A stretch of DNA of 64,000 nt from a virus (lineage: Duplodnaviria > Caudoviricetes): the IMG/VR virus record IMGVR_UViG_3300021185_003947. The stretch is one strand, 5' to 3'. Positions 1 to 35,824 of this stretch are shown piece after piece (within the stretch, counting starts at the first letter, position 1; every line of letters begins with the position of its first letter). The translations under genes were made by a program, and so were the position numbers. The notes beneath the pieces were generated by a model. It made no database searches, was not told the DNA's origin, and saw only the letters and a program-made list of their open reading frames with translations.

Positions 1-316
1 CTGAAGCAACCAAAGTAAGTGTTGGCATACCTACAAACTTTACTGCCATAGCATTGAGAATTTTATTTCTCATTGAAGTATCTTGGTTAAATACAAAATT
101 CTCTAACCAATATACCTCGGCATGTTTAGAACGATTTGGGTTCCAATATGAAACTTCTTGTCTCATTGCAGGGCCAAAATCTTCAGAGTATTCGTATTCG
201 TTAATTTGACCCCTTTCTCTTAAAGTTTCTCTTTTAAAAAAATCAAGAACCCACTTATTAAAATAATTAAAATTATTTGGATCACGGGTCTGTTTTAACG
301 TTTTAAGCGAAATCAT
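1..316 (-). CDS. 5' part of a gene running off the left edge; candidate aGPT-Pplase/5-hmdU-DNA-kinase helical-domain family DNA-modifying enzyme
   Basis: Not in the ORF track. Manual translation from ATG at 316 (AAGGA RBS, overlaps the HAD stop) is open to position 1: MISLKTLKQTRDPNNFNYFNKWVLDFFKRETLRERGQINEYEYSEDFGPAMRQEVSYWNPNRSKHAEVYWLENFVF...KILNAMAVKFVGMPT. The spacing resembles the family pattern F.YW..ER...G...WT.DPIL..Y.F.N..R..D..T.WL. Family call is by eye. Confidence 0.5.
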   Translation of the reverse strand, partial: MISLKTLKQTRDPNNFNYFNKWVLDFFKRETLRERGQINEYEYSEDFGPAMRQEVSYWNPNRSKHAEVYWLENFVFNQDTSMRNKILNAMAVKFVGMPTLTLVAS

Positions 317-722
317 GCCGCACATTTTCCTTTTCAACTAAATCGTGTTGTAGCAATACCACATTAATGTGGGGCATCATTTTTCTAATGATTTCTGCTT
401 GAATTGGATCATCTTCATAATGTATTCCAAATCTATATCCAAGTGTTTCAAGATGAAAAAGTGTCCGGCCTTTATGGCGGCCGGAGTCTTCTCTTGATTT
501 TGATTCAAATGGTGTTGGATTTAAATACAATTCATTGGTTATATTTTTAGATTTAAGCATTGCTTCAGTTTCAGATCTTTCTTCATTAGATCGACCTGTA
601 ATGATAACATCTCTATCACCTGGATAAACACCATCATATTTATCCATAAAAATAACACCATCAATATCAAAAGAATTAATTATTTTATCTGGAACAGCAT
701 TTTGCTCTACATAATTATTCAT
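303..722 (-). CDS. HAD-superfamily phosphatase (small, capless)
   Basis: Motif I FDIDGV, motif II ITGR, Lys (RHKG), motif IV YEDD. Likely start ATG 722 overlaps the MIPS stop. Confidence 0.8.
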   Translation of the reverse strand: MNNYVEQNAVPDKIINSFDIDGVIFMDKYDGVYPGDRDVIITGRSNEERSETEAMLKSKNITNELYLNPTPFESKSREDSGRHKGRTLFHLETLGYRFGIHYEDDPIQAEIIRKMMPHINVVLLQHDLVEKENVRHDFA

Positions 723-2010
723 AATCAGTTTTTCCATCTTGGTATGTATATGGCAAATCTTTAGCTTTAGGATTAGATTTAGCTAATTGTGGCCGAGTCA
801 TATTAGTAAGCTCTCGACGAGCAAGGGCATCACATTCAAACTTTGCATCAGATGTTGTAAGCTGAACAGGTGGAGTTTTTTGTGTATAAGCACTTGGCCC
901 ACGAAGAATGCCAACAATTCCCATTTCAGCAGCTACTCGACAGAAACGAATTGCTGATATAACAACACCACCTGAGTTTGGTGAGTCTTGACATGATAGT
1001 CTAGCTTGAAGAGTATAACGAGCTCCACCAAATCCAAATGCTACAATATCAAGATCTGCAATCTTATTATCAGATCCAACATAATCACCACCTGGTTTTT
1101 GCATAACAGTTAGAGATGGGCCGGCATATAGTGTATCACCGGCATAGTCAACACCACGGACAGTATTCTGTCCTTTTAAAACATTTTCTTTTGAGATATG
1201 TTTATTATGTAAACGCTCTTTTTCAGCCATATTAATAAAGTCAGTGTTTGATGTAACACCATTACGAATATGTTCACGGCCTTGGGTTGCTCCACCAATT
1301 CGATTGGTTTGAGTATGATATGTAACATGTAAACCACCATCAATCATTGCACCCTGCAATACCTCAGATAAACGAGATGCTCCCCAAGCTGAACGCATAT
1401 CAGATCCAACAAAAGTAAGACCTGCATTAATAAATTTTTGTTCGATTTCTTGAGTTTCTTTTGTTTCAATCAATGTTGGAATACAATTAACAAAATGTAC
1501 TTCAGCAGCAAGAGCAACGTCTAAATAAAAGCGAGTAGCTTTTTCAGATCCAACTGGCAGATAATTAATAAGAACTTCGACACCAGATGATTTGATAAGA
1601 CTAACAATATCATCAAATGACTTAGCTGATTCAGCACCAACTCTAAATGATACTTCTTCAGGGTAATATTCCATCCATTCTGCAACACCATCAAGTGTTG
1701 GGCTTGAATACACTTGAGCGCCTTTGGCTACAGCTCCAGGTGAATTGTTTCCAGATTCTAATATTTCTTGAACATGATTCATTGCGCAATTTGGTTTTGC
1801 TCGTAAAGCTTCAATAAGAGGACGATTAACTTTACGACGGTCTACGTCAAAGCCAATTACAAATTCAACAGAGCTTGTATCGTATCCACCAATATCTGGA
1901 TACATAAGACCTACAGTATCATTTGGATTTTCATTATAATATTGCATGCCTTCAACAAGCGACTGTGCGCAGTTTCCTACACCAATAATACCAACTTTAA
2001 TTTTCTTCAT
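715..2010 (-). CDS. ino1: myo-inositol-1-phosphate synthase (bacterial/archaeal type)
   Basis: KVGIIGVGNCA NAD-binding start, FDVD..KV, NYLPVGS, VNCIP, NTDFINM, ISK, DSPNSGG and QKTPP all match the MIPS pattern. Confidence 0.92.
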   Translation of the reverse strand: MKKIKVGIIGVGNCAQSLVEGMQYYNENPNDTVGLMYPDIGGYDTSSVEFVIGFDVDRRKVNRPLIEALRAKPNCAMNHVQEILESGNNSPGAVAKGAQVYSSPTLDGVAEWMEYYPEEVSFRVGAESAKSFDDIVSLIKSSGVEVLINYLPVGSEKATRFYLDVALAAEVHFVNCIPTLIETKETQEIEQKFINAGLTFVGSDMRSAWGASRLSEVLQGAMIDGGLHVTYHTQTNRIGGATQGREHIRNGVTSNTDFINMAEKERLHNKHISKENVLKGQNTVRGVDYAGDTLYAGPSLTVMQKPGGDYVGSDNKIADLDIVAFGFGGARYTLQARLSCQDSPNSGGVVISAIRFCRVAAEMGIVGILRGPSAYTQKTPPVQLTTSDAKFECDALARRELTNMTRPQLAKSNPKAKDLPYTYQDGKTDYE

Positions 2011-2039
2011 TTTTACTTCCTTTATTTCAGTTTTTTAAA

Positions 2040-2071
2040 GTGAGATTGGCTGCATAAGCAGAGTAGCTCAC
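2040..2071 (-). other. Stem-loop in the 5' leader of the MIPS gene
   Basis: On the minus strand GTGAG/CTCAC outer stem, 5x5 internal loop, CTGC-TTAT-GCAG inner hairpin. Lies between the promoter and the RBS. Confidence 0.4.
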
Positions 2072-2100
2072 GTTATAGTTATAATAGTTTTAGTGATTAT

Positions 2101-2129
2101 ATTATATTACATTTTTAATAAAATGTAAA
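2101..2129 (-). promoter_or_regulatory. sigma70-type early promoter for the MIPS operon
   Basis: TTTACA-N17-TATAAT on the minus strand. Confidence 0.8.
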
Positions 2130-2137
2130 CTAAAAGT

Positions 2138-2671
2138 TTACAAATTAACCCATCTATATTTAAGACCAGCTTCTTTGTAATATGACTTAGATCTTTGCCA
2201 TGAGTCATGCCATTTTTCATCAATCTTTTGCCGTGGCATGACTAGTTCAGCAACTCCTACTTGAATAAGTCCTTTTGCGCAATCAGAACAAGTAGGAAGA
2301 CCTGATACGTAAACAGTTGATTTATTTAAACACACACCATTAAAAGATGCATTATAAATCATGTTCATTTCAGCATGAACAATTCTAACATATTTCTCTT
2401 TTCGATTACTATATAGGTTAGGACTATCAAGCATTCCTCGAGGAAATCCATTATATCCTTGAGCTAAGACTTGCCCTTTTGAACCTACAGCAATGGCTCC
2501 AATTTGGCTTGAAGGATCTTTAGACCATCCAGCAATAGTTTTAGCTAGCTCTAAATATCTTAGATCCCACTTATGTTGTCGGGCAAGAAAAGCTTTATCA
2601 TTTTTTTTATGAGCATTCTCTCTATCTTTCATATCATTATAATTATTTGACAAGATTAAAATGCCTTTCAT
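2138..2671 (-). CDS. cd: dCMP deaminase
   Basis: HAEMN and PTCSDC zinc motifs, WSKDPS, GYNGFPRG. True start may be the ATG at 2632. Confidence 0.93.
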   Translation of the reverse strand: MKGILILSNNYNDMKDRENAHKKNDKAFLARQHKWDLRYLELAKTIAGWSKDPSSQIGAIAVGSKGQVLAQGYNGFPRGMLDSPNLYSNRKEKYVRIVHAEMNMIYNASFNGVCLNKSTVYVSGLPTCSDCAKGLIQVGVAELVMPRQKIDEKWHDSWQRSKSYYKEAGLKYRWVNL

Positions 2672-3332
2672 ATACGTGAAGATTTTGTACCTGCCAGATC
2701 ATCATACCAGCGCTAACTGGATCTTTAACTATACAGATATTATTTAAATCATCTACTAATTTATTTTGTACATGTCGTTGCCAAGCATAATCGTTCTTAT
2801 AACCAAACACCACATCATTAGACCGCATTTGGACTACACAATGAAGTAAATTATCACGAATATAGTAAGTGACAGCGTTAGTACAAATGAAATCAGATTT
2901 TCCATTTTCGTTAAACTCCACCCAAATAGAAGGCCGATTGTAGATCATAGAAGCACGTCTACCATCGGGATTTTTGTCTAGTTCAGCCAATACGTTTTGA
3001 TATTGATCATAGTATTTATTCGAATAAATTAGATGACCATAGTTTGAATTAATTTCACCATGTGTATTAGCAGCATATTTCCAAGCAGCTGGAGCATCTT
3101 CGCCAGACTCTTTATTAATATCAAAGATATTAGTTGATTGGCTATCATACCAATCCAATTCTTTTTGAATATATGAAAGAGACGGTTTACCAAATATAGA
3201 TGGCTCATCAGCAATAAATGATGCACCAATCATTTCAATAGTGCGTGCGCCAGTTTTATCAATAGTAAATGCTTCATCATTTAATTCATCAATAAAGAAT
3301 TGACGAACATCTTTTACAGAATTCATTTTCAT
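2643..3332 (-). CDS. 42: dCMP hydroxymethylase (T4 gp42 homolog; thymidylate synthase fold)
   Basis: Collinear with T4 gp42: DKTG..TIE.IGASF.ADEP.IFG, GEINSNYG, DF.CTN, MRSNDVVFG.KNDYAWQ, LHVY.RHF. The Asp of NDYAW is the dCMP-specificity residue. Confidence 0.92.
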   Translation of the reverse strand: MKMNSVKDVRQFFIDELNDEAFTIDKTGARTIEMIGASFIADEPSIFGKPSLSYIQKELDWYDSQSTNIFDINKESGEDAPAAWKYAANTHGEINSNYGHLIYSNKYYDQYQNVLAELDKNPDGRRASMIYNRPSIWVEFNENGKSDFICTNAVTYYIRDNLLHCVVQMRSNDVVFGYKNDYAWQRHVQNKLVDDLNNICIVKDPVSAGMMIWQVQNLHVYERHFNLVK

Positions 3333-3736
3333 TGCTCACATACTCTCTTTCTTAGATCGCTTGTTGAAAAGCGATGATCACGTTTATTAAAATAAAGATC
3401 TATACCACGTTGTCGACATTCATCTTTACCAGTAAAATCTTTACTCCTATATTCTTCACCAAGTATCCTAACATCAATTGGATACATGTTTATTATATCA
3501 CATAAATCGCTTTCTGTACAATAAATAATCACTTCATCTACATATTTTATTGCATTGAGCTGTACCTGTCTTTCCACAATATTTTGAATTGGAGCATTCT
3601 TTTCTTTACGATCGATGGTAGGATCTACTTGCAGACCGCAGATCAAATAGTCACACTGTGACTTTGCTTCTCTGAGCATAGATACATGTCCAGCATGAAG
3701 TAAATCAAAAGTACTACAAGTAAATCCCACTTTCAT
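3329..3736 (-). CDS. HIGH-type cytidylyltransferase (TagD / glycerol-3-phosphate cytidylyltransferase-like)
   Basis: FDLLHAGH, KYVDEV, FSTSDLR. Its stop overlaps the gp42 start (ATGA). Confidence 0.88.
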   Translation of the reverse strand: MKVGFTCSTFDLLHAGHVSMLREAKSQCDYLICGLQVDPTIDRKEKNAPIQNIVERQVQLNAIKYVDEVIIYCTESDLCDIINMYPIDVRILGEEYRSKDFTGKDECRQRGIDLYFNKRDHRFSTSDLRKRVCEQ

Positions 3737-4041
3737 TAGTCGTGTTCTCCATTATTTCTACGACCGTTATATCCATCAATTCTATCAAAAAGCTTAGGAT
3801 TGCGCTTTGCAGTATCAAATGTGCCGACTGTAATCACAATTGCTGCTAATAGCAATGTATGAACGATTGCGTTAATACCCCAAAACATAATGCTTCCTAA
3901 ATACATAGAGCATACAGATACCCACATCCAAGCAAGTATCTGCATAATCAAATGTCTAACTTGAAGATTTGGTATATTTCTTAAAGGATTAATATCTGCA
4001 TCCATGACACTATTCCAAGCATCATTAATAAATTCTCTCAT
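3736..4041 (-). CDS. Hypothetical membrane protein (two predicted TM helices)
   Basis: Two hydrophobic segments (ILAWMWVSVCSMYLGSIMFWG; IVHTLLLAAIVITVG); coupled to its neighbours. Confidence 0.65.
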   Translation of the reverse strand: MREFINDAWNSVMDADINPLRNIPNLQVRHLIMQILAWMWVSVCSMYLGSIMFWGINAIVHTLLLAAIVITVGTFDTAKRNPKLFDRIDGYNGRRNNGEHD

Positions 4042-4384
4042 TGTCCGATCTCCCTACAGTTTCTCTTATGATATCGTTGTGGTTAAACTCAGCCCAGTAT
4101 AACTCAAAAGCTACACCAGGTTCAATACATTCAAATTGATGATAAACTCCTGGTTTCACTTTAGTATATTCACCAGCTTGTAAAATAGTTTCATCGATTA
4201 AATCGTAATCATTTTGCCATACGCGTACAAGCATTATTCCTGACTCGATATAGAAACCATTCCATTTGTACTCATGCAGATGTTTTGAGCATACTCCTGT
4301 AGCTTCCATTTCAATACGATGAAATTCTAAAGTGCCATTAGCTTCAATGAGTTCAGTCATTCCCCAGACTTTACCAGCTTTCAA
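4025..4384 (-). CDS. Cupin (RmlC-like) protein, possible sugar isomerase
   Basis: KVWG start, H.H..K...F.I.SG and VKPGVYHQF cupin metal motifs. Confidence 0.7.
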   Translation of the reverse strand: MKAGKVWGMTELIEANGTLEFHRIEMEATGVCSKHLHEYKWNGFYIESGIMLVRVWQNDYDLIDETILQAGEYTKVKPGVYHQFECIEPGVAFELYWAEFNHNDIIRETVGRSDNERIY

Positions 4385-6999: not shown

Positions 7000-7028
7000 A
7001 TTATAACATATTTTTAACAGCTTGTAAA
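7000..7028 (-). promoter_or_regulatory. Early promoter inside the 3' end of PMM
   Basis: TTTACA-N17-TATAAT. Confidence 0.7.
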
Positions 7029-7717
7029 TAAGAAAATGTATCTTCCCAACTATTCACTTGATATGTACTATTTTCTCCTCCACGATCATGTACAGCTAAT
7101 GCGATTTCATGATCATTTCCACCTTTATCACATTTGTCTCCAAAGAAATAGATAACATCTGAAGAATCAAAATCATCAAGAATTTGTGATTTATTATTTC
7201 CTTTAGCAGTAATATCTATACCGGTTTCGCCAGCGACTTGAAATTCAAACAATGGAAATCGCTCTCGTAGCTTAGCAGCAATATTATTTCTTTCATTAGT
7301 ATAATTGTCATATGCTACGTATTGAATTCGAGTACGATTACCTATATTTCTTCCTGGAATAGACAAGTTATATAGACCCGGACGTTCCTCAATATGCTGT
7401 CCGTTTTTAACTGGAAATGAACTGTCAGTAATTGCTTTGTTTAAATAGCCCCACATTTCATCTGGTAACTTTAAAGTAGAAGTACGAACATTCTTACCGC
7501 GTTCCCACACGTCATTTCCACAACATTGATAATTGCGCTTAGTCATTCCCCAAATAACTTCTCCAACTTGCTCTCGTGTTTTTTGAATATCGCTACCTGT
7601 TACTAAATACACTTTATTTAAAGTACAAAAATCAAAGAAAAACTTTGAAAACTCTTCATCCATTTTACCTCTGCTTGGAGTAAGAGTTCCATCAACATCA
7701 AAAATAAAATTAATCAT
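7001..7717 (-). CDS. Phosphomannomutase, eukaryotic HAD-IIB type
   Basis: FDVDGTLTP.R, VTGSD, IEER, IAGETGIDI, FFGDKC..GGND.EI. Confidence 0.85.
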   Translation of the reverse strand: MINFIFDVDGTLTPSRGKMDEEFSKFFFDFCTLNKVYLVTGSDIQKTREQVGEVIWGMTKRNYQCCGNDVWERGKNVRTSTLKLPDEMWGYLNKAITDSSFPVKNGQHIEERPGLYNLSIPGRNIGNRTRIQYVAYDNYTNERNNIAAKLRERFPLFEFQVAGETGIDITAKGNNKSQILDDFDSSDVIYFFGDKCDKGGNDHEIALAVHDRGGENSTYQVNSWEDTFSYLQAVKNML

Positions 7718-8942
7718 TTATTAAGCTTTCTAGAATGTTTAACACACTTTCACTATCGTCATGAGTACCACGTCTAATAGCTCCCTTGACACAATTTCTA
7801 GTAAAGTCCAATGGATATCGCTTGCCTTCTTTATCCATTCCCGTATTGATTAAATATACATTGCATTTATTATCATTAATTTTACTCATTAGTAAATCAC
7901 TATAAACATGTATCGGTCTTGGCATAAAAGGTGAGCCATAGCATGGACTAAAGAGTGGCTTGATTTCTGTTGCTCCCTGCTCAGTTCCGGGCATTTGGCT
8001 TGTGTATCCAGTTTCAAAGAAACGTCGTACAGTCTCATCAGAAATTTTAGATACCGGAGGAAACACGCCTTTCGCATCCATAGTAAGAAAAAAGATATTA
8101 GTTGGATGATTAAATTGTTGAGGTTTATGATATGCGTTTTCAACACAAGTAATTGGATAACTTAATCTTGCATTTGGTACACCTGGATTTTCTACAACTA
8201 AGCAATCTTCTGATCTTGCTTTTTCTACTGCATCAAATATAGTCTTATGTGTCTCTGGTGTTAATCCTTCACTTTTTGCGTAACAACCAGTTTCTATCAT
8301 TTCAATTCCATCGTGATTCCAAGATACTTCGTCATCACTAATTAATCTATAATCCGGATCGCTACTAAGAGTAGTTTTACCAGTACCACTTAATCCAAAC
8401 ATTAAATTAGTTGTATCATTATATGTAAAGGCACTACAATGCATTGGTAAAATATCATATCTTGGTAGTTCAAAACTAACTATACCAAATATACCTTTTT
8501 TGATTTCACCTAAAAATGTTGTTCCAGCAATTAACATAGTTTTAGTATCAAGATTTACATAGATTTTTGGTTCATCGACCTTTAATTCTGTGTTATGCCA
8601 AATCGTCCAATCAGAATCATGTGCGCTATGTGGATAAACTTGAGGATCAAACCCATCAGGCAATACATCAAACATATTCTTAACAAATTGCTCATGTCTC
8701 GCATCATTAGTAATTATTTTAAATCTGATATTACATGTCTCAAGGCATAAAGGTTCTTTATAAATCAATTGAGATATTAACCTAGGCATCATCAAATCTG
8801 CAAGTTGAAGAAAGTCTTCCATCTCTCCAACTTTATAATACTTTGGTCGAGTCTTATCTAAACACTTTGTTTTTTCTCCAAAAAAGTATTTATTTTCTGG
8901 GCTTCGGCCAGTTGGATTTGTTGTAATATTAATATTTGTCAT
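7710..8942 (-). CDS. pckA: Phosphoenolpyruvate carboxykinase (ATP), compact form
   Basis: [22 protein letters not shown]-loop [33 protein letters not shown]. 410 aa versus about 540 aa in cellular PckA. Confidence 0.9.
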
Positions 8943-11530
8943 CCAAAGAAATCCTCTAATGTTGCTCTATCTTCAACTGACCAGCCAACAGCATCAAGAA
9001 TTGGCGTGAGCGGTTCAATAAAAGTTTTATTAAATTGTATATCATAGTTTATATATTTATGAAGATTAAGCTCAGGTGGTAAGTATTCAGGAAAGGATAT
9101 GACATTTTCTTTAATAGGATTAGGCATCTTAAGATAAGTAAATTTAATCTTTTCACCATTTTGTATCATATCATATTTCTTATTAAGAGCTTTGTCTTTA
9201 ATTTCATGATTATATAAAAGAGAACCACGAACATGAATTGGTGTACCCTTTTTATAAATTAAATTTCTATCTTGCCATTTGGATACTTCTGAAACGCCAC
9301 GAGGAAATGATACTTTTTCAGGAGGTAATGATTTAAATTCTTGTCTAAAGTTATCTATAAACTTACGAGTTGCAAGTTCAGATCCAGTAACGATTATTTT
9401 AAAAGCTTCTTTAAATTTATCACGAACTACTTCGGGAGTACTTGATTTAATAGCTTCAATCCCCATGATTTTAAGTTTTGGTTCAGCGTATTGTACACCT
9501 TCATTATTATGTACATTGAGAATATATCTTTTCTTTGCTGTCCATATGCCACGATCAGCTATAACTTCTCTACCCATTTCCATACGAGGAGTATAAGCAT
9601 TTAATCTATGAAATAATTTATCATATGACTTAGCAATTATGGGTTCGAAGTGTGTCTTACAAATTTTGTCCAATGCTTTAACAGAGTCCTTTGGCGCCAG
9701 TTGAGCAATAAGAGGACCAAAATTAATGTAGACTGAGTCAGTGTCAATAGCAATAACATAATCTTTTCCTTTAGTTTTAAGTATTTTATTCATTTCAACA
9801 TTGATAGCTCTTTCAGCCCACTTTATTGAAAGTTGACCAGTAAGAGTTACACTTTCGGCAAGAGCATTATCAAAATATTTAAAATACTTATTTGCCATTG
9901 CGCCATACAAAGAATTAAGTAGAATCTTAATAGCCATTTGATTATTTTCTAGCTGATTAATTTCTGACTCAAGAGCTGTATTTTTTGTTTGCTCATACTC
10001 TTGTTTTACTTTAAGCATTTTTTGTTTAATTACACTACGTTCAGCATAGTATTCAACAATTAATTCAGGAATAATACCTTGCTTATTTTTACTAAATGGA
10101 ACACCACTTGCACATATAGAATACTCATCAGAAGCAGCCTGACCATCAATAAAATAGTGATCAACACCTTGGGTATATTCACCAAATGATTTATCTTTTA
10201 CAAGAGTTTCAGGAGATATATTAGATTGAACAATTATGTTTGGATATAGAGAATTTAAATCAAATGATACGACCCAATCATGTGAACCAACATGTGGATC
10301 TTTAACATAACCTCCAGCAATTGCGTGAGATTTTTGTGGTTCACGGGTACGATCTAAATTACCAGCTGGGTTTTTCTTTGAAGTTTCAGTAGCTCCATGA
10401 ACAGCATACATACATGGTTTAATCTGTTCAATTGGTGATATTACATTATTTTTAAGAAGTCTTCGATAAATGATTGATTCCCATATTGAAGTTGTACCCA
10501 TTGTATCACCAAGATTAACACCACCTTTATATGCCATAGTCAATCCAAGATTAATAAGACCCATCTTTTGATCAATACGGTCTACAAGTTGAACATCTTT
10601 AATATTATAGTCAATAAACTTTTGATGGTCAGCTTTATATAAACTGTGAAGATTACCATGTTCTTCATAAGATAATTTTTTTTCATTGAGGACTGTATAA
10701 GCAATATGGTCAAGCTTATAAGATTCTTGAGCGCCATATGAATAACCAAACTTTTTGAATAATTCAATATAGTCTGCGGTTTGAATACCAACTAATTCAT
10801 AACTATACTGAGTACGACCCATCTTAGTTATTTGTCTATCATTAACTAGCTTCCATGGAGAAAGTTTATTGGCTGCTTCTTCAGTACCAATATTTTTGAT
10901 ACGATTTACAAGATAAGGAATATCAAAGAAACGAATATGCCAACCTGTAATAACATCTGGATAATTGTTTACCCAATAGTGTAAAAAGGAAGCTAACATA
11001 GCTTTTTCAGTATCAAATTTATGATACTTGATTAGATCACCATTCATTTCTAATTCTGTTTTATTTGTATCGTATTCACCTAAACCCCACACTTCGTAAA
11101 TAGAAGATTTACTAGATTTAAGAGCAATTGATATAATAGGATATGCTGCTTCTTCTGGAATAGGAAAACCATCATCAGATGCTACTTCAATATCAAAATT
11201 AACAACGTTAATGTGATTTTGATTAAAATTTATATTATCTGGAAATTTATCTGTAATAAATTGTTGGATATAGTTTCGAGTGCCATAGACTTTAACGCCT
11301 TCCATTTCTTTATAAGTTTCAAGAAAATCTTTTGACTCACTCATTTTTTGAAATTTAATAGCATTTAGATATCCACCATCGAAAGAACGAAATTTTGTGG
11401 GTTCTTTCGATGGCAAATATTGTGTTGGACCGAATTTAATACGATCTTCTATTCGAGTACCATTTTCAGTATAGCCTCTATATAAAATAGTATTACCATA
11501 CCGATTAACTGATGTGTAAAAATTATTCAA
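8939..11530 (-). CDS. 43: Family B DNA polymerase
   Basis: FDIEV (ExoI), [48 protein letters not shown]. Confidence 0.97.
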
Positions 11531-19019: not shown

Positions 19020-19237
19020 GCTTTTACGTCCCAATCTGCTTTTTCTTCAAGAGTCCATTGTACTGCTTGATAATAGTCTTTGTCTTCGTCGTTCATATGT
19101 GCAGCAAATAAACTAACTTTCGCCATTTGATTTAGTAGGTCAGTTTTACCTTCTATTAAATGATCCTGTCCAGGTGATTCCATAATAGCTTGAATAGCAT
19201 CCATATGAAGCTTAATTCTTTCTTGTATTTTACTCAC
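19016..19237 (-). CDS. Hypothetical protein (73 aa)
   Basis: ATGA-coupled to both gp55 and gp47. Confidence 0.65.
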   Translation of the reverse strand: MSKIQERIKLHMDAIQAIMESPGQDHLIEGKTDLLNQMAKVSLFAAHMNDEDKDYYQAVQWTLEEKADWDVKA

Positions 19238-19824
19238 TCTAAGAAATCCTGTAAGTCTGAGTCAACTGTACGAGCTCTTTTCTTTGGTGTCTTATTAGCT
19301 TTAGCAAAAGTTTTAAGCTCGGTATCATATTCTTTTACTTTACTAATTCTATCTTTTAAAGTATCAACAAAGTGCGTAGCTACCTGAGTCGATTCTTCAC
19401 TACTAGAAGAAGTGATAAACGCTTCAACTCCAGATTGCAACATATACTTTTCTTTAATCTCTTGCTGTTTCTTTTCCTTTGTAATTCTACGAAGAAAAGC
19501 AAACCAAATAATTTGAGTAAAATAAGCAAATGCGTTTGGTTTGCCTGAACGAGTTTTAGCATCAATATTATAGTTTTCAACAGCTTTTAGACAATTTTCA
19601 ACTGCATCCATAACCATTTCTTCACGATAAGTATATCGTATAAAATTAGACTTATGTGAAAGATTTTCAGCAATTTTTAAAAAAGATATAGCAATATCAT
19701 CAGGAACAATTGGTAAAACATCGTTATTTTCTTTAGCTTCAGAAACAGTTTTTACATAGTTGACTACTGATAATGAGAATTCAGCATTATTTACATAATG
19801 TACATTTTTAGTTTTTTTGGGCAT
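19234..19824 (-). CDS. 55: Late-transcription sigma factor
   Basis: HYVNN.EF, NF..YTYREEM..DA.ENC, NAFAYFTQI...AF.RRI.KEK. Confidence 0.95.
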   Translation of the reverse strand: MPKKTKNVHYVNNAEFSLSVVNYVKTVSEAKENNDVLPIVPDDIAISFLKIAENLSHKSNFIRYTYREEMVMDAVENCLKAVENYNIDAKTRSGKPNAFAYFTQIIWFAFLRRITKEKKQQEIKEKYMLQSGVEAFITSSSSEESTQVATHFVDTLKDRISKVKEYDTELKTFAKANKTPKKRARTVDSDLQDFLE

Positions 19825-22988: not shown

Positions 22989-24638
22989 ATGGCTAGACGC
23001 ATAACTGTAAACTTAAGTGACACTATCAACACTTGGAGAATAAAGACAAATGCTCTCAGTCTTTTGATAGGTGATTTAGATGATTTATCTTCTGAATTTA
23101 CTGGTCATGATTCTGATTTTGTAGAAGCTATGAATTTTGCATTTGATAAAAAAGGCCTCTACTCAGCAGGTCTTGGAATAACCAAATCAACTAGTGGAGA
23201 TTCTTCAGGTGTATTTAATGTTTTAGCTGGAACTGGATTAACACAGGATTCAAATGGTTTAAGTATAGGCCCTGCTCCGGGAAATACAATTAAAGTTAGA
23301 GATGCAAATTCTGCCGGAGCTTTGTCTGATAAAGAAATAATTAATGAACAAATTTTAATTGGTAATGGCAATGGTTTTACATCTGCTGCTTTATCTCAAG
23401 ATGTTCTTATGACAAATGCTGGTGTTGTTACAATTCAACCTGATGTTGTTACGTATTCTAAAATGCAAAATGTTGTAGGCGCAAACAAAGTTCTTGGAAG
23501 TTCAACCGCAAATGGAATTATAACAGAGACTCAAGTGCAAACTGGAATGATTGCAGATGACGCTGTTACTACTGTTAAAATTCTAGATGATAATGTTACA
23601 TATGCTAAAATTCAAGATGCAGGCGCCAATTCAATTCTAGTTAGAGACGGAGCTGCAGCTGGAGATATATCAGCAAAAACTTTAACAGATACTCAAATCT
23701 TAATTAATAATGGAGCAGGATTTACTGCTGCAGCATTATCTGGTGATATTACAATGAATAATGCTGGAGTAGTAACAGTTGATCCGTCAGTAATCGGGAG
23801 TGTAGGCATTACTATCGGTGGAAACGCCCCAACTTCACCTGCAAATGGAACAGCCTGGTTTGACGATGTAACAGCCGGCGAAATGTTTGTATATAGCGAT
23901 AGCGCATCAAATTGGATACAGGTCACAGGGTCTATCACTTCTTTTTCAGCTATAAGTGGAACACCACCGGCGGCACCTTTAGATGGTACTTTTTGGTTTG
24001 ATGATGTAACAGACGGAGAACTGTTCATTTATAGTGATAGTGCATCAAATTGGATACAGGTTACTGGATCAATCACTTCTTTTTCAACAATAGGCGCATC
24101 GCCTCCAGCTGCACCTTTAAATGGTACTTTTTGGTTTGATGACAGCGCAACTGGAGAACTGTTTATTTATAGTAATGATGCATCAAATTGGATACAGGTT
24201 ACTGGCGTAGTCGCTAATGTAGCATTCTCCGATTTAACAAGTACTCCAACTACTTTAGCTGGCTACGGAATTACAGATGCACCGTCGGTATTAACTGACC
24301 TAAGTATTACTGATGGAACAAGCGGACAAGTACTAACAACAGACGGTAGTGCTGGATTTACATTTACATCTGCATCAAGTAGTACAACCTTTAATGCCAT
24401 TGGAACTTATTGTTTGGGGTTCTATACTGGTCTTGGCATTCACAATGGAGGTGCTACTTTCTCAGGAAGTTCAATTGCTACTGCTAATACTTATGCCGGT
24501 ACTAGTGGCTGGAGTGGATCTAGTACTTCTACTTTATCAGGAACTTGGCGCCTTATGGGAAACATAGGCTATTATAATCAAGGTACCACTGCAAGTAACG
24601 CAAACGTATCCGGCAGTTTATTTGTGAGGATTTCATAA
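22989..24638 (+). CDS. Modular tail-fibre/whisker-like virion protein (549 aa)
   Basis: N-terminal VNLSDTINTWRIKTN anchor-like motif, A.T..KI.D..VT repeats, three 42-aa WFDD repeats, VAFSDLTS linker, C-terminal SGTWR.M..LF.RIS domain. Confidence 0.75.
   Translation: MARRITVNLSDTINTWRIKTNALSLLIGDLDDLSSEFTGHDSDFVEAMNFAFDKKGLYSAGLGITKSTSGDSSGVFNVLAGTGLTQDSNGLSIGPAPGNTIKVRDANSAGALSDKEIINEQILIGNGNGFTSAALSQDVLMTNAGVVTIQPDVVTYSKMQNVVGANKVLGSSTANGIITETQVQTGMIADDAVTTVKILDDNVTYAKIQDAGANSILVRDGAAAGDISAKTLTDTQILINNGAGFTAAALSGDITMNNAGVVTVDPSVIGSVGITIGGNAPTSPANGTAWFDDVTAGEMFVYSDSASNWIQVTGSITSFSAISGTPPAAPLDGTFWFDDVTDGELFIYSDSASNWIQVTGSITSFSTIGASPPAAPLNGTFWFDDSATGELFIYSNDASNWIQVTGVVANVAFSDLTSTPTTLAGYGITDAPSVLTDLSITDGTSGQVLTTDGSAGFTFTSASSSTTFNAIGTYCLGFYTGLGIHNGGATFSGSSIATANTYAGTSGWSGSSTSTLSGTWRLMGNIGYYNQGTTASNANVSGSLFVRIS
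23826..24207 (+). repeat. Three tandem 126-bp coding repeats (P..P..GT.WFDD...GE.F.YS..ASNWIQVTG)
   Basis: Visible in both DNA and protein; ends approximate. Confidence 0.8.
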
Positions 24639-24744
24639 TGACTATTGGAGTAGTTCTGAAGCAAATAGCGGTTCAAAGGGGTATACTGGTGGTACAGAAA
24701 CCCGGCCAAGAAACATTGCATTTCTAGCTTGTATTAAATATTAA
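24628..24744 (+). pseudogene. Orphan 3' remnant of a tail-collar gene (...GGTETRPRNIAFLACIKY*)
   Basis: Start-less frame after TGA 24625-27. Its last ~50 nt, including the next RBS taaggaga, nearly match 25800-25851. Confidence 0.75.
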
Positions 24745-24756
24745 GGAGACATTGGT

Positions 24757-25152
24757 ATGAACGTATATCAGACAGATTTAAATGGTGTTTATGTAGGCAC
24801 TACAACAGCAGATCAAGACCCTTTAGATGACACTAACTGGCTTATTCCAGCGGGTTGCGTACAGACTGCACCACCAACAATAACTGACAGCCAACTTGCT
24901 AAGTGGGATGGTTCAGGATGGGTTGTAGAGAATATACCCATTGTAGAACCTGATCCAGAACCTGAGTCTATTGCACCAGAAGTTTTAGCCCGTGGAAAGC
25001 GTGACGGACTATTGATAACTTCAGATTGGACACAGGTTGATGACTCTCCTGTAGATAAGTCTGCTTGGGCAACATACAGACAACTTTTACGGGACGTACC
25101 AACTCAAGCAGGATTTCCAAACACAATAACATGGCCCACTTCACCCGAATAG
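24757..25152 (+). CDS. Tail-fibre assembly chaperone
   Basis: Tfa-like N-terminus (YQ.D..G.YVG...LIPAG...PP) plus R..RD.LL..SDW...W..YRQ.LRD.P.Q.GFP..I.WP. Confidence 0.85.
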   Translation: MNVYQTDLNGVYVGTTTADQDPLDDTNWLIPAGCVQTAPPTITDSQLAKWDGSGWVVENIPIVEPDPEPESIAPEVLARGKRDGLLITSDWTQVDDSPVDKSAWATYRQLLRDVPTQAGFPNTITWPTSPE

Positions 25153-25178
25153 AGTATGCATAATTAGGAGAAAAAGGA

Positions 25179-25847
25179 ATGCCATATCCATTAAACCCGA
25201 CAACAGGTGATGAATATATTTTAGGATCAAAAACTTGGAAATACAATGGTTCGCGCTGGGTAAAATTAGGACTTTCACAAACTGTATCTGCAGATGTAGC
25301 ATTCTCAGATTTAACAAGTACTCCAACTACATTATCAGGCTATGGAATTACTGATGCTGCAAGTTCATCAAGTGCATCAGTTCCTGCCGGTACATTAATT
25401 TATCATGCAGCTAATACAGCCCCTACAGGCTTTATTAAGGCTAATGGTGCTGCTATATCAAGAACAACTTATGCTGATTTGTTTGCAGCAATAGGCACTA
25501 CGTATGGCGCTGGTGATGGATCTTCTACTTTTAATGTCCCCGACCTTCGTGGTGAGTTTATGCGTGGATGGGATGACGCGCGCGGAATTGATACCAGTCG
25601 TTCTTTTGGTTCTGCACAGGCTGATGAATTTAAGCTACACGGTCACCCTTCAAGGCGGGGCACTGAATTTAATGTTACCAACGATACTGGCGGCGGCGGT
25701 ATACTCATGGACAGTAATGGAGGTCAAGCAAACAGGTCAGCGTTTACAGGAACACCATCAAATACTGATGGGCAACATATTGGCGGCTCTGGAGGTTCAG
25801 AAACACGTCCAAGAAACATTGCATTTCTAGCTTGTATTAAATATTAA
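25179..25847 (+). CDS. Short tail-fibre protein with one tail-collar domain
   Basis: P.GT.I..A....P.GF..ANGA..SRT.YA.LF..IGT.YG.GDG..TFN.PDLRGEF.RGWD ... ETRPRN.A...CIKY. Confidence 0.85.
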   Translation: MPYPLNPTTGDEYILGSKTWKYNGSRWVKLGLSQTVSADVAFSDLTSTPTTLSGYGITDAASSSSASVPAGTLIYHAANTAPTGFIKANGAAISRTTYADLFAAIGTTYGAGDGSSTFNVPDLRGEFMRGWDDARGIDTSRSFGSAQADEFKLHGHPSRRGTEFNVTNDTGGGGILMDSNGGQANRSAFTGTPSNTDGQHIGGSGGSETRPRNIAFLACIKY

Positions 25848-25859
25848 GGAGAAACAATA

Positions 25860-26276
25860 ATGTCTGTTACAATTACACAAGTGCGTAATGCACAATCACT
25901 TAACGTAGAGAATACTGCATATGATGTAGAAATTAATCATCCCGATTACGGTTGGATACCTTACACTTTGGACCCTAGCGACACTGATATGACTATCGAT
26001 AACAATGCTGTAATGTCTTTGATAAGCACAAACTTTACATCTTATGTAGCACCTACTCAGGCAGAGTTAGATGCAGAACTTGAAGCAAATCTAAGAAGTC
26101 AACGTGACCAGAAGTTAGTAGAAGAATTGGACCCTATAGTAACTAACCCTTTACGTTGGGCAGAACTTACATCTGATAAGCAAACAGAGTGGACACAATA
26201 TAGAACTGACTTATTAAATGTACCACAACAGTCAGGGTTTCCTACAAATGTAACTTGGCCAGATAAACCTGTATAA
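25860..26276 (+). CDS. Tail-fibre assembly chaperone
   Basis: LR.QRD..L ... W..YR..L..VPQQ.GFP..V.WP C-terminus. Confidence 0.8.
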   Translation: MSVTITQVRNAQSLNVENTAYDVEINHPDYGWIPYTLDPSDTDMTIDNNAVMSLISTNFTSYVAPTQAELDAELEANLRSQRDQKLVEELDPIVTNPLRWAELTSDKQTEWTQYRTDLLNVPQQSGFPTNVTWPDKPV

Positions 26277-26279
26277 ATA
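26272..26279 (+). promoter_or_regulatory. Late promoter inside the fibre cassette
   Basis: TATAAATA about 20 nt before the ATG at 26300. Confidence 0.65.
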
Positions 26280-26299
26280 TATAATCAGGAGAAACAGAA

Positions 26300-28072
26300 A
26301 TGGCATATCCAACAAATCCAACGACCGGTGACACCTATGTTTTAGGATCAAAAACTTGGACCTACAATGGCACGAACTGGGTAAATCAAGCAACGTTTGC
26401 ATCAGGTAGTAGTGCTAGTGTAGCATTCTCCGATTTAACAAGTACTCCAACTACATTAGCTGGCTACGGAATTACAGATGGTGGCAGTGGTAGCGGTGGC
26501 GGAGCAATGGAATTCATTGCTTCATCAGGGGCTTTAAGTAATGTGGCTGATGTTAGCTTTACACAGTTTGATGCAACTAAGTATGATCATTATGTCTTTG
26601 CGCTTCAAAATGTCATACCTGATACAAATGGTGCAAACTTATTTGCACGCTTAAGGCCAACTGGAAGTTCGACTTATTCTGCCACTAGTGGAAATTATGA
26701 AACGGCTGGTAGTGCTAGAACAGCGTTTGTATTAGCTGATAGTGTGGGGACTAATACACATGGCTATGGTGTAGGTGGTTTATTTAATTTATATGCGCTA
26801 CATTTAACTGATGAATACACGTTCGCAGATACCGTTAATTTGATATATACACGAAATAATGGAGTAACGACACAAACAATATCGTATGCTGGGGCTGGTA
26901 ATATTTACAAGCAAGCAACAGCGGTCGATGCGATTCGATTCTTTTTTTCGTCAGGGAACATCTTCTCGGGCGAAATAGTAATGTACGGAATTAGGAATTC
27001 AGCATCGGGTGGAGGAGGAGCCGGAGGCGGTAGTGTAGCATTCTCCGATTTAACAAGTACTCCAACTACCTTAGCCGGCTACGGAATTACAGATGGTGCA
27101 AGTGAATCAGCTGCAGTTGGTACAGTAATTTATCATTCAGCTAATACAGCCCCTACAGGCTTTATTAAGGCTAACGGCGCTGCTATATCAAGAACAACTT
27201 ACTCTGATTTGTTTACGGCAATTGGTACAACTTTTGGTAGTGGCGATGGATCTTCTACTTTTAATGTCCCCGACCTTCGCGGCGAGTTTCCTAGAGGTTG
27301 GGATGACGGCCGTGGAATTGATGCCAGCCGTTCTTTTGGTTCTGCACAGGCTGACCAAATGGAATCCCACAATCACAGCGTACCTTCTGCCGCTAACTTT
27401 GGTGGTAATCATGACCGAATAGTAGTTGGTACCGGAGTGTTTTCAAGCAACAATGCGTCTACAGATTTCACCGGTGGAACGTCTAATTCTTCTGAAAACC
27501 GCCCAAGAAACATAGCCCTACTTGCTTGTATTAAATATCAATCAACCTCTTCTGGTGGTGGTGGCGGTTCTCTCAGCAACATAGTTGAAGATACCACACC
27601 ACAGCTTGGTGGCAATCTGGACGCCCAAACATTTGATATCACTACCACAGGAAAGATACTATACGCGAATATGTATGCTACAGAAGGTGATTTGCCAAGT
27701 GCAACCACCTATCACGGTATGTTTGCACATGTTCACGGTACAGGAGCAGGTTACTTTGCTCATGGCGGTAATTGGATTAAACTAGCAAATCATGCAGACC
27801 TGAGTAGTGCATCAGGTAGTACAACAGCTGGAGGTGTTGGTACTTACTCACTACTTGGTAAAGCTGATGGTAGCACTACATCTCTTGGCACAGATGTATC
27901 GGGCAGTTCACTTCGGTATAGTAGCACTTATTCTTACAGTCCAAGTTACTATGGCATGTCAGGGTCTGCGCCTAGCGGCACATGGCGCTGCATGTCTGTC
28001 GGCGGGGCTTATAATTTATCAACAACTGCTGCGAATTCAACAACAGTTACTATATTTCTAAGGATTTCATAA
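26300..28072 (+). CDS. Modular tail-fibre protein (590 aa, one collar domain)
   Basis: YPTNPTTGD N-terminus, two VAFSDLTS linkers, collar domain, YHGMFAHVH module, SGTWR.M..FLRIS C-terminus. Confidence 0.82.
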   Translation: MAYPTNPTTGDTYVLGSKTWTYNGTNWVNQATFASGSSASVAFSDLTSTPTTLAGYGITDGGSGSGGGAMEFIASSGALSNVADVSFTQFDATKYDHYVFALQNVIPDTNGANLFARLRPTGSSTYSATSGNYETAGSARTAFVLADSVGTNTHGYGVGGLFNLYALHLTDEYTFADTVNLIYTRNNGVTTQTISYAGAGNIYKQATAVDAIRFFFSSGNIFSGEIVMYGIRNSASGGGGAGGGSVAFSDLTSTPTTLAGYGITDGASESAAVGTVIYHSANTAPTGFIKANGAAISRTTYSDLFTAIGTTFGSGDGSSTFNVPDLRGEFPRGWDDGRGIDASRSFGSAQADQMESHNHSVPSAANFGGNHDRIVVGTGVFSSNNASTDFTGGTSNSSENRPRNIALLACIKYQSTSSGGGGGSLSNIVEDTTPQLGGNLDAQTFDITTTGKILYANMYATEGDLPSATTYHGMFAHVHGTGAGYFAHGGNWIKLANHADLSSASGSTTAGGVGTYSLLGKADGSTTSLGTDVSGSSLRYSSTYSYSPSYYGMSGSAPSGTWRCMSVGGAYNLSTTAANSTTVTIFLRIS

Positions 28073-30384
28073 TGTCATATCCAACAAATCCAACTACGGG
28101 CGATACGTATATTTTAAGTGGAAAAACTTGGAAATATGATGGTGCGAACTGGTTAAAATTAGGACTTTCACAAGCTGTATCTACTAATGTAGCATTTTCA
28201 GATTTAACAAGTACTCCAACTACTTTAGCTGGCTATGGAATTACAGATGGTGCAACAGGAACAGGTGAATCAGTTCCAGTTGGTACGGTAATTTATCATT
28301 CAGCCAACACACCCCCTACGAATTTCATAAAAGCCAATGGTGATGCTGTATCGAGGACAACTTACTCTGATTTGTTTACAGTTATTGGAACTACGTATGG
28401 CGCTGGTGATGGGTCCACTACATTTAACGTGCCTGACCTTCGTGGTGAGTTTATGCGTGGCTGGGATGATAGTCGTGGAATTGATAACGGTCGTTCCTTT
28501 GGCTCGGCTCAAGCGGATGAGCTAAAAGCACACACTCACAACTACACAGACGGGACAAACGGAACAAACCCAACAGGCACCGGGGCCGGAACAAATAATT
28601 CGTTTCCTGTGGTGAATGGACGAGCAACCAGCGAGACAGGCGGTACAGAAACCCGTCCAAGAAACATAGCCCTACTTGCTTGCATTAAATATCAATCAAC
28701 GTCTGGATCAGGTAGTAGTGCTGGTGTAGCATTCTCCGATTTAACAAGTACTCCAACTACCTTAGCCGGCTACGGAATTACAGATGGTGGCGGTGGTGGT
28801 TCATATGCAAATAGTGATGTTGATACACACTTGAACCAAGGTACTGCGACATCTAATCAAGTGTTAAGTTGGAATGGTACAGATTATGCATGGGTATCAA
28901 ATAGCATTGCAAATTCATCAGTTTCTGCCGGTACAGTAATTTATCATGCAGCTAATACTCCCCCTACAAATTTCATAAAAGCTAATGGTGCTGCTATATC
29001 GAGGACAACTTACTCTGATTTGTTTGCAGCAATTGGTACAACTTTTGGTAGTGGTGACGGCTCTTCCACGTTCAATGTTCCTGACCTTCGTGGTGAGTTT
29101 CCCAGAGGTTGGGATGACGGCCGTGGAATTGATACTAGTCGAGCTTTTGGTTCTGCACAGGCTGATGAGTTAAAAAGTCACACACACACTGTTTACAACG
29201 GTACAGCGGTTGATGACAACCGTGCCTACTCAGCGGCGGATTCTACACAACGATTATATTCAGGCTCTCCGAATAGGGAAACGGCAGCTACAGGTGGTAC
29301 AGAAACCCGCCCACGCAACATAGCCCTACTTGCTTGCATTAAATATCAATCAACCTCTTCTGGTGGTGGTGCTGGTGTAGCATTCTCAGATTTAACAAGT
29401 ACTCCAACTACATTATCAGGCTATGGAATTACAGGTGATATTGATGCCGGAGGCAACAAAGTATTATTTGCAAACATGTATGCTACAGAAGGTGATTTGC
29501 CAAGCGCGACCACCTATCATGGTATGTTTGCTCATGTTCATTCTACAGGCGCAGGCTACTTTGCTCACGCTGGTAACTGGGTTAAACTAGCAAATCATAC
29601 AGACCTAAGTAGTATATTAGCTTCTGATTACCCAGTAGAACCTAATTGGAATTCACACACAGAAGAAATTACTACATCAAGCACTTGGACTAAACCAGCC
29701 GCTTTAAGTGATGACGCTTGGGTCATTGCTTATGGTGTTGGTGGTGGAGGTGCCGGTGGACATACGTTTGCGAATAAGACTGGTTTTTCATCTATCCAAA
29801 AGGCGAGGGCTGGGGCAGGTGGTGGTGCTATGATCATTGCTTTGAAGGCTAGCACACTTAACGGCGCTTCATTTACAATTGGCAGTGGTGGTATTGGTTC
29901 TACTTCCAGTCAAGGACCGGCCGGTGGCAATACTACTATTACAACCATAGGAACTGGTAGTACAATATATACAGCTGCTGGCGGCGAAGGCGGAATAGCG
30001 GCTAACTCAGGTGCTTCTACTGGCGGCGGTGGACAGATAATTTGGTGGACAAGGCCAGGTGAAAATGATATATCCGCTAGTTGGGATGTAACTGGTGGTG
30101 GTTCAGGAGCTGGCGCAGATACAAGCTTTACTCCTGCTACTGAACAATTTGCAGGTGGTGCATCACAAGGCATGACAGGAAATGCCGGCGGTGGTGCCTT
30201 TGGTGTCTCAACTTACGCAGGTGATGGTGTAGCTGCATCTACTACAAATGTAGATGGTGTAAACGGTGGATTTCCAGGTGGTGGCGGCGGTGCTACACAC
30301 GTTAATTTCGGCGGTAGTACTACAACAACCGTAGTGACTGGTGATGGTGCAAACGGTTCAATTAGACTATACTATACAATATAA
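28072..30384 (+). CDS. Modular tail-fibre protein (770 aa, two collar domains, Gly-rich C-terminus)
   Basis: YPTNPTTGD start, two collar domains, three linkers, YHGMFAHVH module, GGGGAGG glycine-rich tail. Confidence 0.82.
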   Translation: MSYPTNPTTGDTYILSGKTWKYDGANWLKLGLSQAVSTNVAFSDLTSTPTTLAGYGITDGATGTGESVPVGTVIYHSANTPPTNFIKANGDAVSRTTYSDLFTVIGTTYGAGDGSTTFNVPDLRGEFMRGWDDSRGIDNGRSFGSAQADELKAHTHNYTDGTNGTNPTGTGAGTNNSFPVVNGRATSETGGTETRPRNIALLACIKYQSTSGSGSSAGVAFSDLTSTPTTLAGYGITDGGGGGSYANSDVDTHLNQGTATSNQVLSWNGTDYAWVSNSIANSSVSAGTVIYHAANTPPTNFIKANGAAISRTTYSDLFAAIGTTFGSGDGSSTFNVPDLRGEFPRGWDDGRGIDTSRAFGSAQADELKSHTHTVYNGTAVDDNRAYSAADSTQRLYSGSPNRETAATGGTETRPRNIALLACIKYQSTSSGGGAGVAFSDLTSTPTTLSGYGITGDIDAGGNKVLFANMYATEGDLPSATTYHGMFAHVHSTGAGYFAHAGNWVKLANHTDLSSILASDYPVEPNWNSHTEEITTSSTWTKPAALSDDAWVIAYGVGGGGAGGHTFANKTGFSSIQKARAGAGGGAMIIALKASTLNGASFTIGSGGIGSTSSQGPAGGNTTITTIGTGSTIYTAAGGEGGIAANSGASTGGGGQIIWWTRPGENDISASWDVTGGGSGAGADTSFTPATEQFAGGASQGMTGNAGGGAFGVSTYAGDGVAASTTNVDGVNGGFPGGGGGATHVNFGGSTTTTVVTGDGANGSIRLYYTI

Positions 30385-30405
30385 TATACTAGTAAGGATA
30401 AACTA

Positions 30406-30681
30406 ATGTCTAAAATATTTTATAACAAAGAAACAGGTCTTGGTGCAGTATTTGATAATTCTGCAAACATAAGTGATTGGCCTGACTTTCAGGAAAGTGC
30501 TGTGGTAGCAAACGCAATACAAGTACGAGCGGATCGGGATGCATTACTAGTGGCAGCTGACTACATGGCTTTAGCTGACCGCATAACAGATGAGTGGCGC
30601 ACTTATCGACAAGCATTGAGAGACTTGCCTGCCCAAGAAGGGTTTCCCACAAATGTAACTTGGCCAGATAAACCTGAATAA
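30406..30681 (+). CDS. Tail-fibre assembly chaperone
   Basis: VRADRD.LL...D ... WR.YRQALRDLP.Q.GFP..V.WP. Confidence 0.85.
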   Translation: MSKIFYNKETGLGAVFDNSANISDWPDFQESAVVANAIQVRADRDALLVAADYMALADRITDEWRTYRQALRDLPAQEGFPTNVTWPDKPE

Positions 30682-30706
30682 TTAATTATGTAAATAAAGG
30701 TGATCA

Positions 30707-35823: not shown

Positions 35824-35824
35824 T

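Follow-up and report, generated by a model that had tools for sequence, protein, structure and literature searches.

The IMG/VR virus record IMGVR_UViG_3300021185_003947 (Duplodnaviria; Caudoviricetes), of which a stretch of 64,000 nucleotides was analyzed (hereafter the window), possesses at its first bases a truncated open reading frame (ORF) encoding the beginning of a stand-alone HMUDK_hel protein (PF18723). The linkage of this gene to genes for a myo-inositol-phosphate synthase (MIPS) homologue and a HAD-type phosphatase makes its product, on the evidence of sequence, a prime candidate for a base-decorating enzyme. Because the edge ORF always lies beside these inositol-making genes in 5-hydroxymethylcytosine (5hmC) phages, phage DNA may well carry a decoration not described before, for which this gene is a strong candidate. 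An earlier sequence-only reading of the window had assigned it the same role, which the fixed linkage to MIPS and HAD genes supports, but the mechanism attached to that role is disfavoured. We hypothesize that the protein is a cysteine-dependent transferase that would attach a MIPS-derived cyclitol to 5hmC in DNA, a proposal whose chances we regard as even. The gene and its immediate surroundings, for which the metagenomic contig L015 serves as the closest relative, are as follows.

2..316, minus strand: N-terminal 105 codons of a stand-alone HMUDK_hel (PF18723) protein of about 358 aa, from the ORF listing and homologues.
327..332, minus strand: Shine-Dalgarno-like AAGGAA, 10 nt 5′ of the ATG at 316, read directly and the same in L015.
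303..737, minus strand: HAD-type phosphatase, 144 aa, with a DIDGV motif, overlapping both the MIPS gene and the edge ORF (phrog_415, E 1e-7).
715..2010, minus strand: divergent MIPS homologue, 431 aa, from TIGR03450 and PDB matches.

The edge ORF is certainly a coding gene, since its 105-aa product, searched against longer proteins, is matched by 40 of them, nearly all of 350–364 aa, at 62–88% identity; PF18723 is carried by 38 of the 40. The minus-strand frame runs unbroken from a TTG at 337 to base 2, with in-frame ATGs at 325 and 316, and alignment with homologues (MISLKTL.. against the relatives' MTSISLETL..) places the start at ATG 316. The omission of the gene from the ORF track was rightly put down to truncation, as the frame shows up only in a listing that admits ORFs extending past the end of the source. 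The overlap with the HAD gene was likewise correct, the HAD-like ORF (737–303) terminating within the edge ORF with 14 nt in common, while the proposed ribosome-binding site is plausible in sequence but slightly far from the start codon. L015 shares about 99% DNA identity with window positions 1–760 and encodes an intact 358-aa gene in which 104 of the 105 edge-ORF residues are identical, so that the full gene could be recovered; its product (P0043, L015:924–2000) is used here as the full-length proxy. The gene was found in 18 IMG/VR loci, and a megablast search of window positions 1–2500 against cultured phages gave no match.

The whole protein P0043 passes the Pfam HMUDK_hel profile PF18723 with 37.0 bits against a cut-off of 25 (E 3e-9). 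The match spans residues 172–312, beyond the window edge, and involves only the C-terminal half of the profile, which indicates a divergent subfamily. Searched on its own, the 105-aa fragment finds no Pfam family, only phrog_17781 (E 2e-7). Membership in the aGPT-Pplase/5-hmdU (5-hydroxymethyldeoxyuridine) DNA kinase family, proposed earlier from the fragment, thus holds for the complete protein and not for the fragment by itself. A full scan of 1.8 billion representatives yielded 59 relatives; all 30 homologues that were aligned match PF18723 (best E 7e-66), and the protein atlas gives HMUDK_hel as well. The other family considered, ADDT (PF18724), matched neither P0043 nor any of the 30 homologues at E values up to 0.1.

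In 5-hmdU DNA kinases, HMUDK_hel forms the portion that is not the kinase. P0043 lacks a Walker A motif (G-x4-G-K-[ST]) and has no kinase match in Pfam or NCBIfam; because it has no P-loop, the edge-ORF protein is, as judged by sequence, a helical non-kinase module standing alone and not a kinase. The motif WNPNRSKH, which had been read as a deviation from a typical F.NV.RE.D, is present at residues 58–65 and invariant within the close subfamily. The supposedly typical form did not prove typical: most of the 30 aligned members show x-P-[NTLI] at this position, and the aligned stretch reads FTNVRREHD in one distant member, P0099. Fusions of an FkbM O-methyltransferase to HMUDK_hel occur among the relatives, and one metagenomic protein of 629 aa (P0035) carries a PRA-PH/MazG-like pyrophosphohydrolase domain fused C-terminally to HMUDK_hel.

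An AlphaFold2 model of P0043, built on the 30-sequence alignment, is all-helical (pLDDT 94.3, pTM 0.90). Its top Foldseek match in the PDB is PaMx11 gp46/PUGT (8z2n; E 0.054, probability 0.94), a 5-PmdU glycinyltransferase and hence an amino-acid:DNA transferase, assigned to PF18724. VIA-align matches the model to 8z2n with Z 9.8 and a root-mean-square deviation of 4.5 over 235 of 288 residues, and to the queuine-salvage enzyme DUF2419 with Z 9.0; the glycosylases OGG, AlkA and Nth follow at Z 5–8. Compared exhaustively with 48,161 chains, the model gave 23 rows between Z 9.0 and 4.5, all from the helix-hairpin-helix (HhH)-glycosylase superfamily, and the first unrelated chain appears at Z 4.4. 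Ranking against BFVD places Aeromonas phage 31 ORF233c at the top, followed by two unnamed proteins, the SP10 5-hmdU DNA kinase, HMUDK_hel proteins of Lucky3 and phiRSL1, and then Pplase1, PhiW-14 HMUDK_hel and AADT; matches to HMUDK_hel members include F8WQ30 (E 6e-5), B2ZYD4 (E 3e-4) and C9DG43 (E 8e-3). When the PDB was searched with the family, neither sequences nor profiles gave a match, not even to 8Z2M. The full-length protein therefore does have the HhH-glycosylase-like fold whose absence would have spoken against a role in DNA modification, and the gene, its family and its fold can be regarded as solid.

Seven columns are invariant among the 30 sequences, which reach down to 18% identity: W179, G211, G213, G243, G245, E306 and C310; Gln311 is invariant or nearly so among divergent members. 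The local motif EITFCQF of P0043 resembles ETILCKW of PUGT, within which Glu243 and Cys247 are essential (PMC11472151, PMC8989533), as Cys and Glu are in ADDTs in general (PMC8989533, PMC11472151, PMC13458397). Comparison of the two families with hhalign gave a probability of 54% (E 1e-4) over 70 columns covering a hairpin, GIGPYxxYH against GFGPWIGFK, in which Y215/H219 pair with the glycine binders W146/K150 of PUGT. A relaxed run over 243 columns places E306 with E243 and C310 with C247, an alignment of low confidence with which the ranges of the structural alignment agree. The family compared with the single PUGT sequence was not significant, and global-mode hhalign produced a meaningless alignment. 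By analogy with the amino-acid:DNA transferases, the conserved Glu-x3-Cys points to covalent catalysis at pyrimidine C6.

Gene surroundings were compared across 48 viral loci with a related gene and sequence beyond it on the relevant side, with relatives down to 25% identity. They come from T4-like contigs up to a complete 293-kb genome, span 25–100% identity and include records of 100–293 kb. Tblastn places MIPS and HAD genes immediately upstream of HMUDK_hel in each of the 17 close loci with sequence on that side. Among loci with relatives 25–35% identical, MIPS lies beside HMUDK_hel in 30 of 30, as does HAD except in L026, where it was undetected. The MIPS homologue matches TIGR03450 with 197 bits, below the 638-bit cut-off; its first PDB match is 1gr0 (E 5e-48) and its second 6k96, a five-membered cyclitol-phosphate synthase (E 8e-28). 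Because the phosphatase is translationally coupled to MIPS, the cyclitol product is expected to be free rather than phosphorylated.

A further partner, a BGT-like/SGNH protein of about 350 aa (BGT, β-glucosyltransferase), is encoded, at varying positions, wherever a locus extends 2.6 kb or more past the gene on the side of this partner, the short contig L014 being the one exception. Its C-terminal half has an SGNH/GDSL fold (Z 13.3), with PatB/OatA O-acetyltransferases at Z 9–10.5, and the signs of a T4 BGT-like part are weaker (Pfam E 0.015, Foldseek E 1.4e-3). Neither the loci nor five whole records, among them the complete genome, yielded a P-loop kinase of the 5-HMUDK type (PaMx11 gp49-type). 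A compact phosphoenolpyruvate carboxykinase (PEPCK) of the window, with the P-loop GLSGTGKT, was considered as the missing kinase and rejected, being a full PEPCK_ATP match (E 1e-91) that is absent from other cassettes. A scan for loci with the relative P0059 found none.

Distant cassettes add genes for FkbM-type and TylF-like O-methyltransferases and sulfotransferases, of the kind that tailor sugars or polyols, which suggests lineage-specific tailoring of the attached group. In many cassettes the SGNH gene is followed by a gene for a C5-cytosine-methyltransferase-like protein; it is present there although 5hmC is predicted to take the place of cytosine in the phage.

L043:6168-7599 and 9503-11238, L051:7323-7991, L035:3613-4287, L025:6920-7627 and L024:6666-7403: FkbM-type, TylF-like and two sulfotransferase-family genes.
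L015:3082-4266 and L001:12153-13349: C5-cytosine-methyltransferase-like protein of 395–398 aa with a Pro-Cys motif.

The substrate base is indicated by two further genes of the window.

2138..2671, minus strand: dCMP deaminase homologue, from a database match.
2643..3332, minus strand: T4 gp42-type dCMP hydroxymethylase, the predicted source of 5hmC (T4 gp42, E 1e-70).

The motif MRSNDVVFG..NDYAWQ is kept in the gp42 homologue, as are the Asp that selects for dCMP and the Asp that is replaced in 5-hydroxy-dCMP synthases. Four hydroxymethylase homologues were aligned (window, L029, L043 and Aeromonas phage 44RR2.8t) and each shows the gp42-type signature; dCMP-type hydroxymethylases often lie near the cassette in related loci. 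Since this signature is kept, the expected base is likely 5hmC and not 5-hydroxymethyluracil. Identity as a 5-hydroxy-dCMP synthase was also considered for the gp42 homologue and rejected by the Asp169 rule (PMC13326640).

The C-terminal tail of the protein also copies that of the DNA polymerase. The polymerase gp43 terminates in ...ATLEDFFG, HMUDK_hel in ...PLESFMV, the SGNH protein in ...TLEDFF and the C5-methyltransferase-like protein in ...TLEEFIC; L-x-x-[FL] is the ending of most of the 30 homologues, and only three of the 67 window ORFs have such a tail.

8939..11530, minus strand: DNA polymerase gene, source of the gp43 tail.
19234..19824, minus strand: tail-bearing ORF of 196 aa, terminating in ...DLQDFLE.
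L015:924-4266: tail-bearing ORFs of the related cassette.

T4-family polymerases contact the sliding clamp via their C-terminal tail, and the tail-bearing proteins are possible clamp clients. Because the tail resembles that of the phage's own gp43, the sequence evidence speaks for an enzyme that works on DNA in step with replication rather than on free nucleotides.

From the gene, its family, fold, conserved residues, synteny and tail motif we infer the following scheme for base, donor and chemistry. A gp42-type enzyme would make 5-hydroxymethyl-dCMP, as its sequence signature indicates, giving phage DNA with 5hmC. The polymerase-like tail would bind the clamp and keep the edge-ORF protein at the replication fork. 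There the modified base would be flipped and Cys310, with Glu306 four residues before it, would attack C6, whereupon the 5-CH2-O substituent would leave, by analogy with the amino-acid:DNA transferases. A hydroxyl of the cyclitol supplied by MIPS and the HAD phosphatase may then add to the exocyclic methylene, yielding an ether-linked cyclitol-methyl-cytosine. Finally, we speculate that the BGT-like/SGNH protein probably either provides the leaving group through O-acylation or modifies the product further, a step that would replace the P-loop kinase of thymidine hypermodification. A wider generalization is more doubtful and offered tentatively: marine and freshwater T4-like and jumbo phages may carry 5hmC ether-linked to an inositol-type cyclitol, in some cases O-methylated or sulfated, made by clamp-tethered fork enzymes through a kinase-free HMUDK_hel Cys-transferase with an SGNH-supplied leaving group.

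Several points weigh against this cyclitol-transfer scheme. For activation of the 5hmC hydroxyl in a system that has no kinase, SGNH acylation is offered here as speculation. The protein resembles ADDT in sequence only marginally (hhalign probability 44–54%), and its Glu and Cys are equated with those of PUGT by position and by an alignment of low confidence. The residue after E306 is Ile or Val where ADDTs have the Thr of their metal/phosphate site, although Glu is kept; this Thr contributes to metal binding in Pplase2 (PMC13458397). The N-terminal metal-site Asp of ADDTs has no equivalent placed here, the alignment being unreliable in the N-terminal part. The C-terminal 253 residues, which include the candidate active site, are taken from the near-identical L015 outside the window. 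On the side of the donor, the product of the MIPS homologue may, judging by its matches, be a cyclitol phosphate other than myo-inositol phosphate, and Aeromonas phages carry a fused enzyme without MIPS. The C5-methyltransferase-like protein of many cassettes, with its intact Pro-Cys, could perform the C6 chemistry instead. Finally, to our knowledge activity has been shown only for clade-2 aGPT-Pplases and for no stand-alone HMUDK_hel.

A different assignment, which we consider rather unlikely, is that HMUDK_hel is a non-catalytic reader or flipper of hydroxymethylpyrimidine which targets its partners (SGNH, FkbM, P-loop kinase), transfer being performed by the SGNH or the C5-methyltransferase-like protein. 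The domain is indeed fused to unrelated catalytic domains (SP10 kinase, FkbM, BGT-like/SGNH), the neighbouring C5-methyltransferase-like protein keeps its Pro-Cys motif, and no activity has been demonstrated for HMUDK_hel or Pplase1 proteins (PMC8989533). However, Glu306, Cys310 and Gln311 are invariant or nearly so at the position of the ADDT catalytic pair, which is unexpected in a pure binder, and the C5-methyltransferase-like gene was not found in most distant cassettes. The structural match to DUF2419, which equals that to PUGT (Z 9.0 against 8.5–9.8), would also accommodate a QNG1/DUF2419-like hydrolase or transferase acting on free 5hm-dCMP or a cyclitol-nucleotide before polymerization. 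This is improbable in view of the polymerase-like tail common to HMUDK_hel and two neighbouring enzymes, the resemblance of the fusion partner to the DNA-binding T4 BGT, and the fact that the closest characterized phage relatives act on DNA. Least of all do we expect a DNA glycosylase or lyase of the HhH type that has nothing to do with the inositol genes, serving for example in attack on unmodified host DNA or in phage DNA repair. The fold does match OGG, AlkA, Nth and MagIII at Z 5–8, and the G-I-G-P hairpin is present, but among the conserved columns of the 30-sequence alignment there is no invariant Asp after the hairpin of the kind that the HhH-GPD signature requires, and the strict MIPS/HAD/SGNH synteny across unrelated phage backbones would stay unexplained.

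The mechanism put forward in the sequence-only reading was an attack on the β-phosphate of CDP-inositol in place of the γ-phosphate of ATP, by which the edge-ORF protein would move phospho-inositol to the hydroxymethyl group and create a phosphodiester-linked inositol. CDP-inositol is a known metabolite of archaeal di-myo-inositol-phosphate synthesis, and the window does encode a candidate cytidylyltransferase three genes from the edge ORF.

3329..3736, minus strand: cytidylyltransferase-like nucleotidyltransferase (PF01467), 135 aa, more likely a sugar-1-phosphate nucleotidyltransferase and not a core partner.
7001-7717, 4025-4384 and 3329-3736 of the window, minus strand; L013:35-1131 and 3368-4204; L054: PMM-like HAD-IIB mutase, RfaE-domain-II-like nucleotidyltransferase and companions.

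The gene also occurs in L013 and L018, and homologues are present elsewhere in three of the five cassette-bearing records. Its distribution nevertheless speaks against a part in the cassette: it was found only in the window and these two loci, always with a PMM-like gene with which it co-varies exactly, and both genes are absent from the gp43-to-uvsX region of L001, L002, L004, L005, L009 and L011, as the nucleotidyltransferase is from all 30 distant loci. The families that it matches best, RfaE domain II and phrog_7878, are both heptose-1-phosphate adenylyltransferase. In the complete 293-kb genome (G004) the closer homologue lies far from the cassette, between an NAD-epimerase and a PfkB kinase and next to a GT9 heptosyltransferase, an operon that by its gene content is of the ADP-heptose type. 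The PMM-like and nucleotidyltransferase genes look like a separate NDP-heptose/mannose pathway; a WbuC-like cupin accompanies the pair in the window and an NAD-epimerase in L013. The HAD phosphatase coupled to MIPS would, moreover, destroy the inositol phosphate that a cytidylyltransferase needs, and the edge-ORF protein has no phosphotransferase motif. Because ATP chemistry belongs to the P-loop domain, absent here, there is no γ-phosphate chemistry to redirect to CDP-inositol. We therefore regard this mechanism as very unlikely.

Among characterized systems, the transferase proposed here is closest to the ADDTs (aGPT-Pplase clade 2, PF18724; PaMx11 gp46/PUGT 8Z2M/8Z2N, M6 gp51, ViI gp247), which provide the best solved fold match. 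Both groups are phage-encoded beside a thymidylate-synthase-type hydroxymethylase and share the all-helical HhH-glycosylase-like fold, a G-x-G-P-aromatic hairpin and Glu-x3-Cys-x-aromatic near the C-terminus. The edge-ORF protein differs in being about 65 residues longer, in showing only marginal profile similarity, and in having Tyr/His for the glycine-binding Trp/Lys of PUGT. The hydroxymethylase encoded with it is of the dCMP type, not the dUMP type, and its other partners are MIPS, HAD and SGNH proteins, with no 5-HMUDK kinase found, whereas the partners of ADDTs are pyridoxal-phosphate (PLP), radical-SAM or FAD enzymes. The HMUDK_hel proteins of SP10 (gp186), PhiW-14 and phiRSL1 match it structurally in BFVD at E 6e-5 to 8e-3 (TM approximately 0.5–0.65); unlike the SP10-type 5-hmdU DNA kinases, it lacks a P-loop domain and stands in a 5hmC context. 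The α- and β-glucosyltransferases of T4 likewise decorate gp42-derived 5hmC after replication in a T4-like phage, and the SGNH partner is BGT-like, but the fold of the edge-ORF protein is unrelated to theirs, has no nucleotide-sugar-binding domain, and its predicted donor is a cyclitol and not UDP-glucose.

A relative from cultured T4-like phages is the uncharacterized protein ORF233c of Aeromonas phages 44RR2.8t and 31 (795 aa, phrog_17781). Its C-terminal half is homologous to the edge-ORF protein (29–30% identity, E 1e-31; BFVD E 1e-16 and TM 0.85 against the P0043 model) and its N-terminal half to the BGT-like/SGNH neighbour, so that the two are fused in one protein. The genome of 44RR2.8t encodes gp42 and gp56, and no MIPS or HAD gene was found in it. 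The symporter encoded directly before the fusion might import the group to be attached.

L019:5154-9134: ORF234c and ORF233c of Aeromonas phage 44RR2.8t, the fusion directly following a sodium:solute symporter gene.

Other features of the window concern metabolism and composition.

7710-8942, minus strand: ATP-dependent phosphoenolpyruvate carboxykinase of 410 aa (PF01293, E 1e-91), overlapping the end of the DNA polymerase gene.

This carboxykinase is an unusual metabolic gene for a phage and is absent from the related loci examined. Positions 24001–36000 have a G+C content of 0.40–0.43, compared with about 0.32 in other parts, and over 22989–31826 coding changes to the plus strand.

Literature searches returned no paper linking MIPS or inositol to phage DNA modification; in PMC13326640 the word 'inositol' occurs only in names of structural matches.

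As far as we know, post-replicative pyrimidine hypermodification of the aGPT-Pplase type has been described only for thymidine analogues, following phosphorylation by a dedicated kinase. The edge-ORF gene ties the HMUDK_hel domain to hydroxymethylcytosine and to a conserved pair of cyclitol-making genes in many uncultured phages. The proposal is directly testable, as the cultured Aeromonas phages 44RR2.8t and 31 have the fused enzyme and the marine cassette consists of four core genes that can be expressed in E. coli together with gp42. If true, it would represent a new chemical class of DNA modification reached by a kinase-independent route, and the DNA of abundant aquatic phages may resist restriction enzymes, some sequencing chemistries and Cas nucleases.

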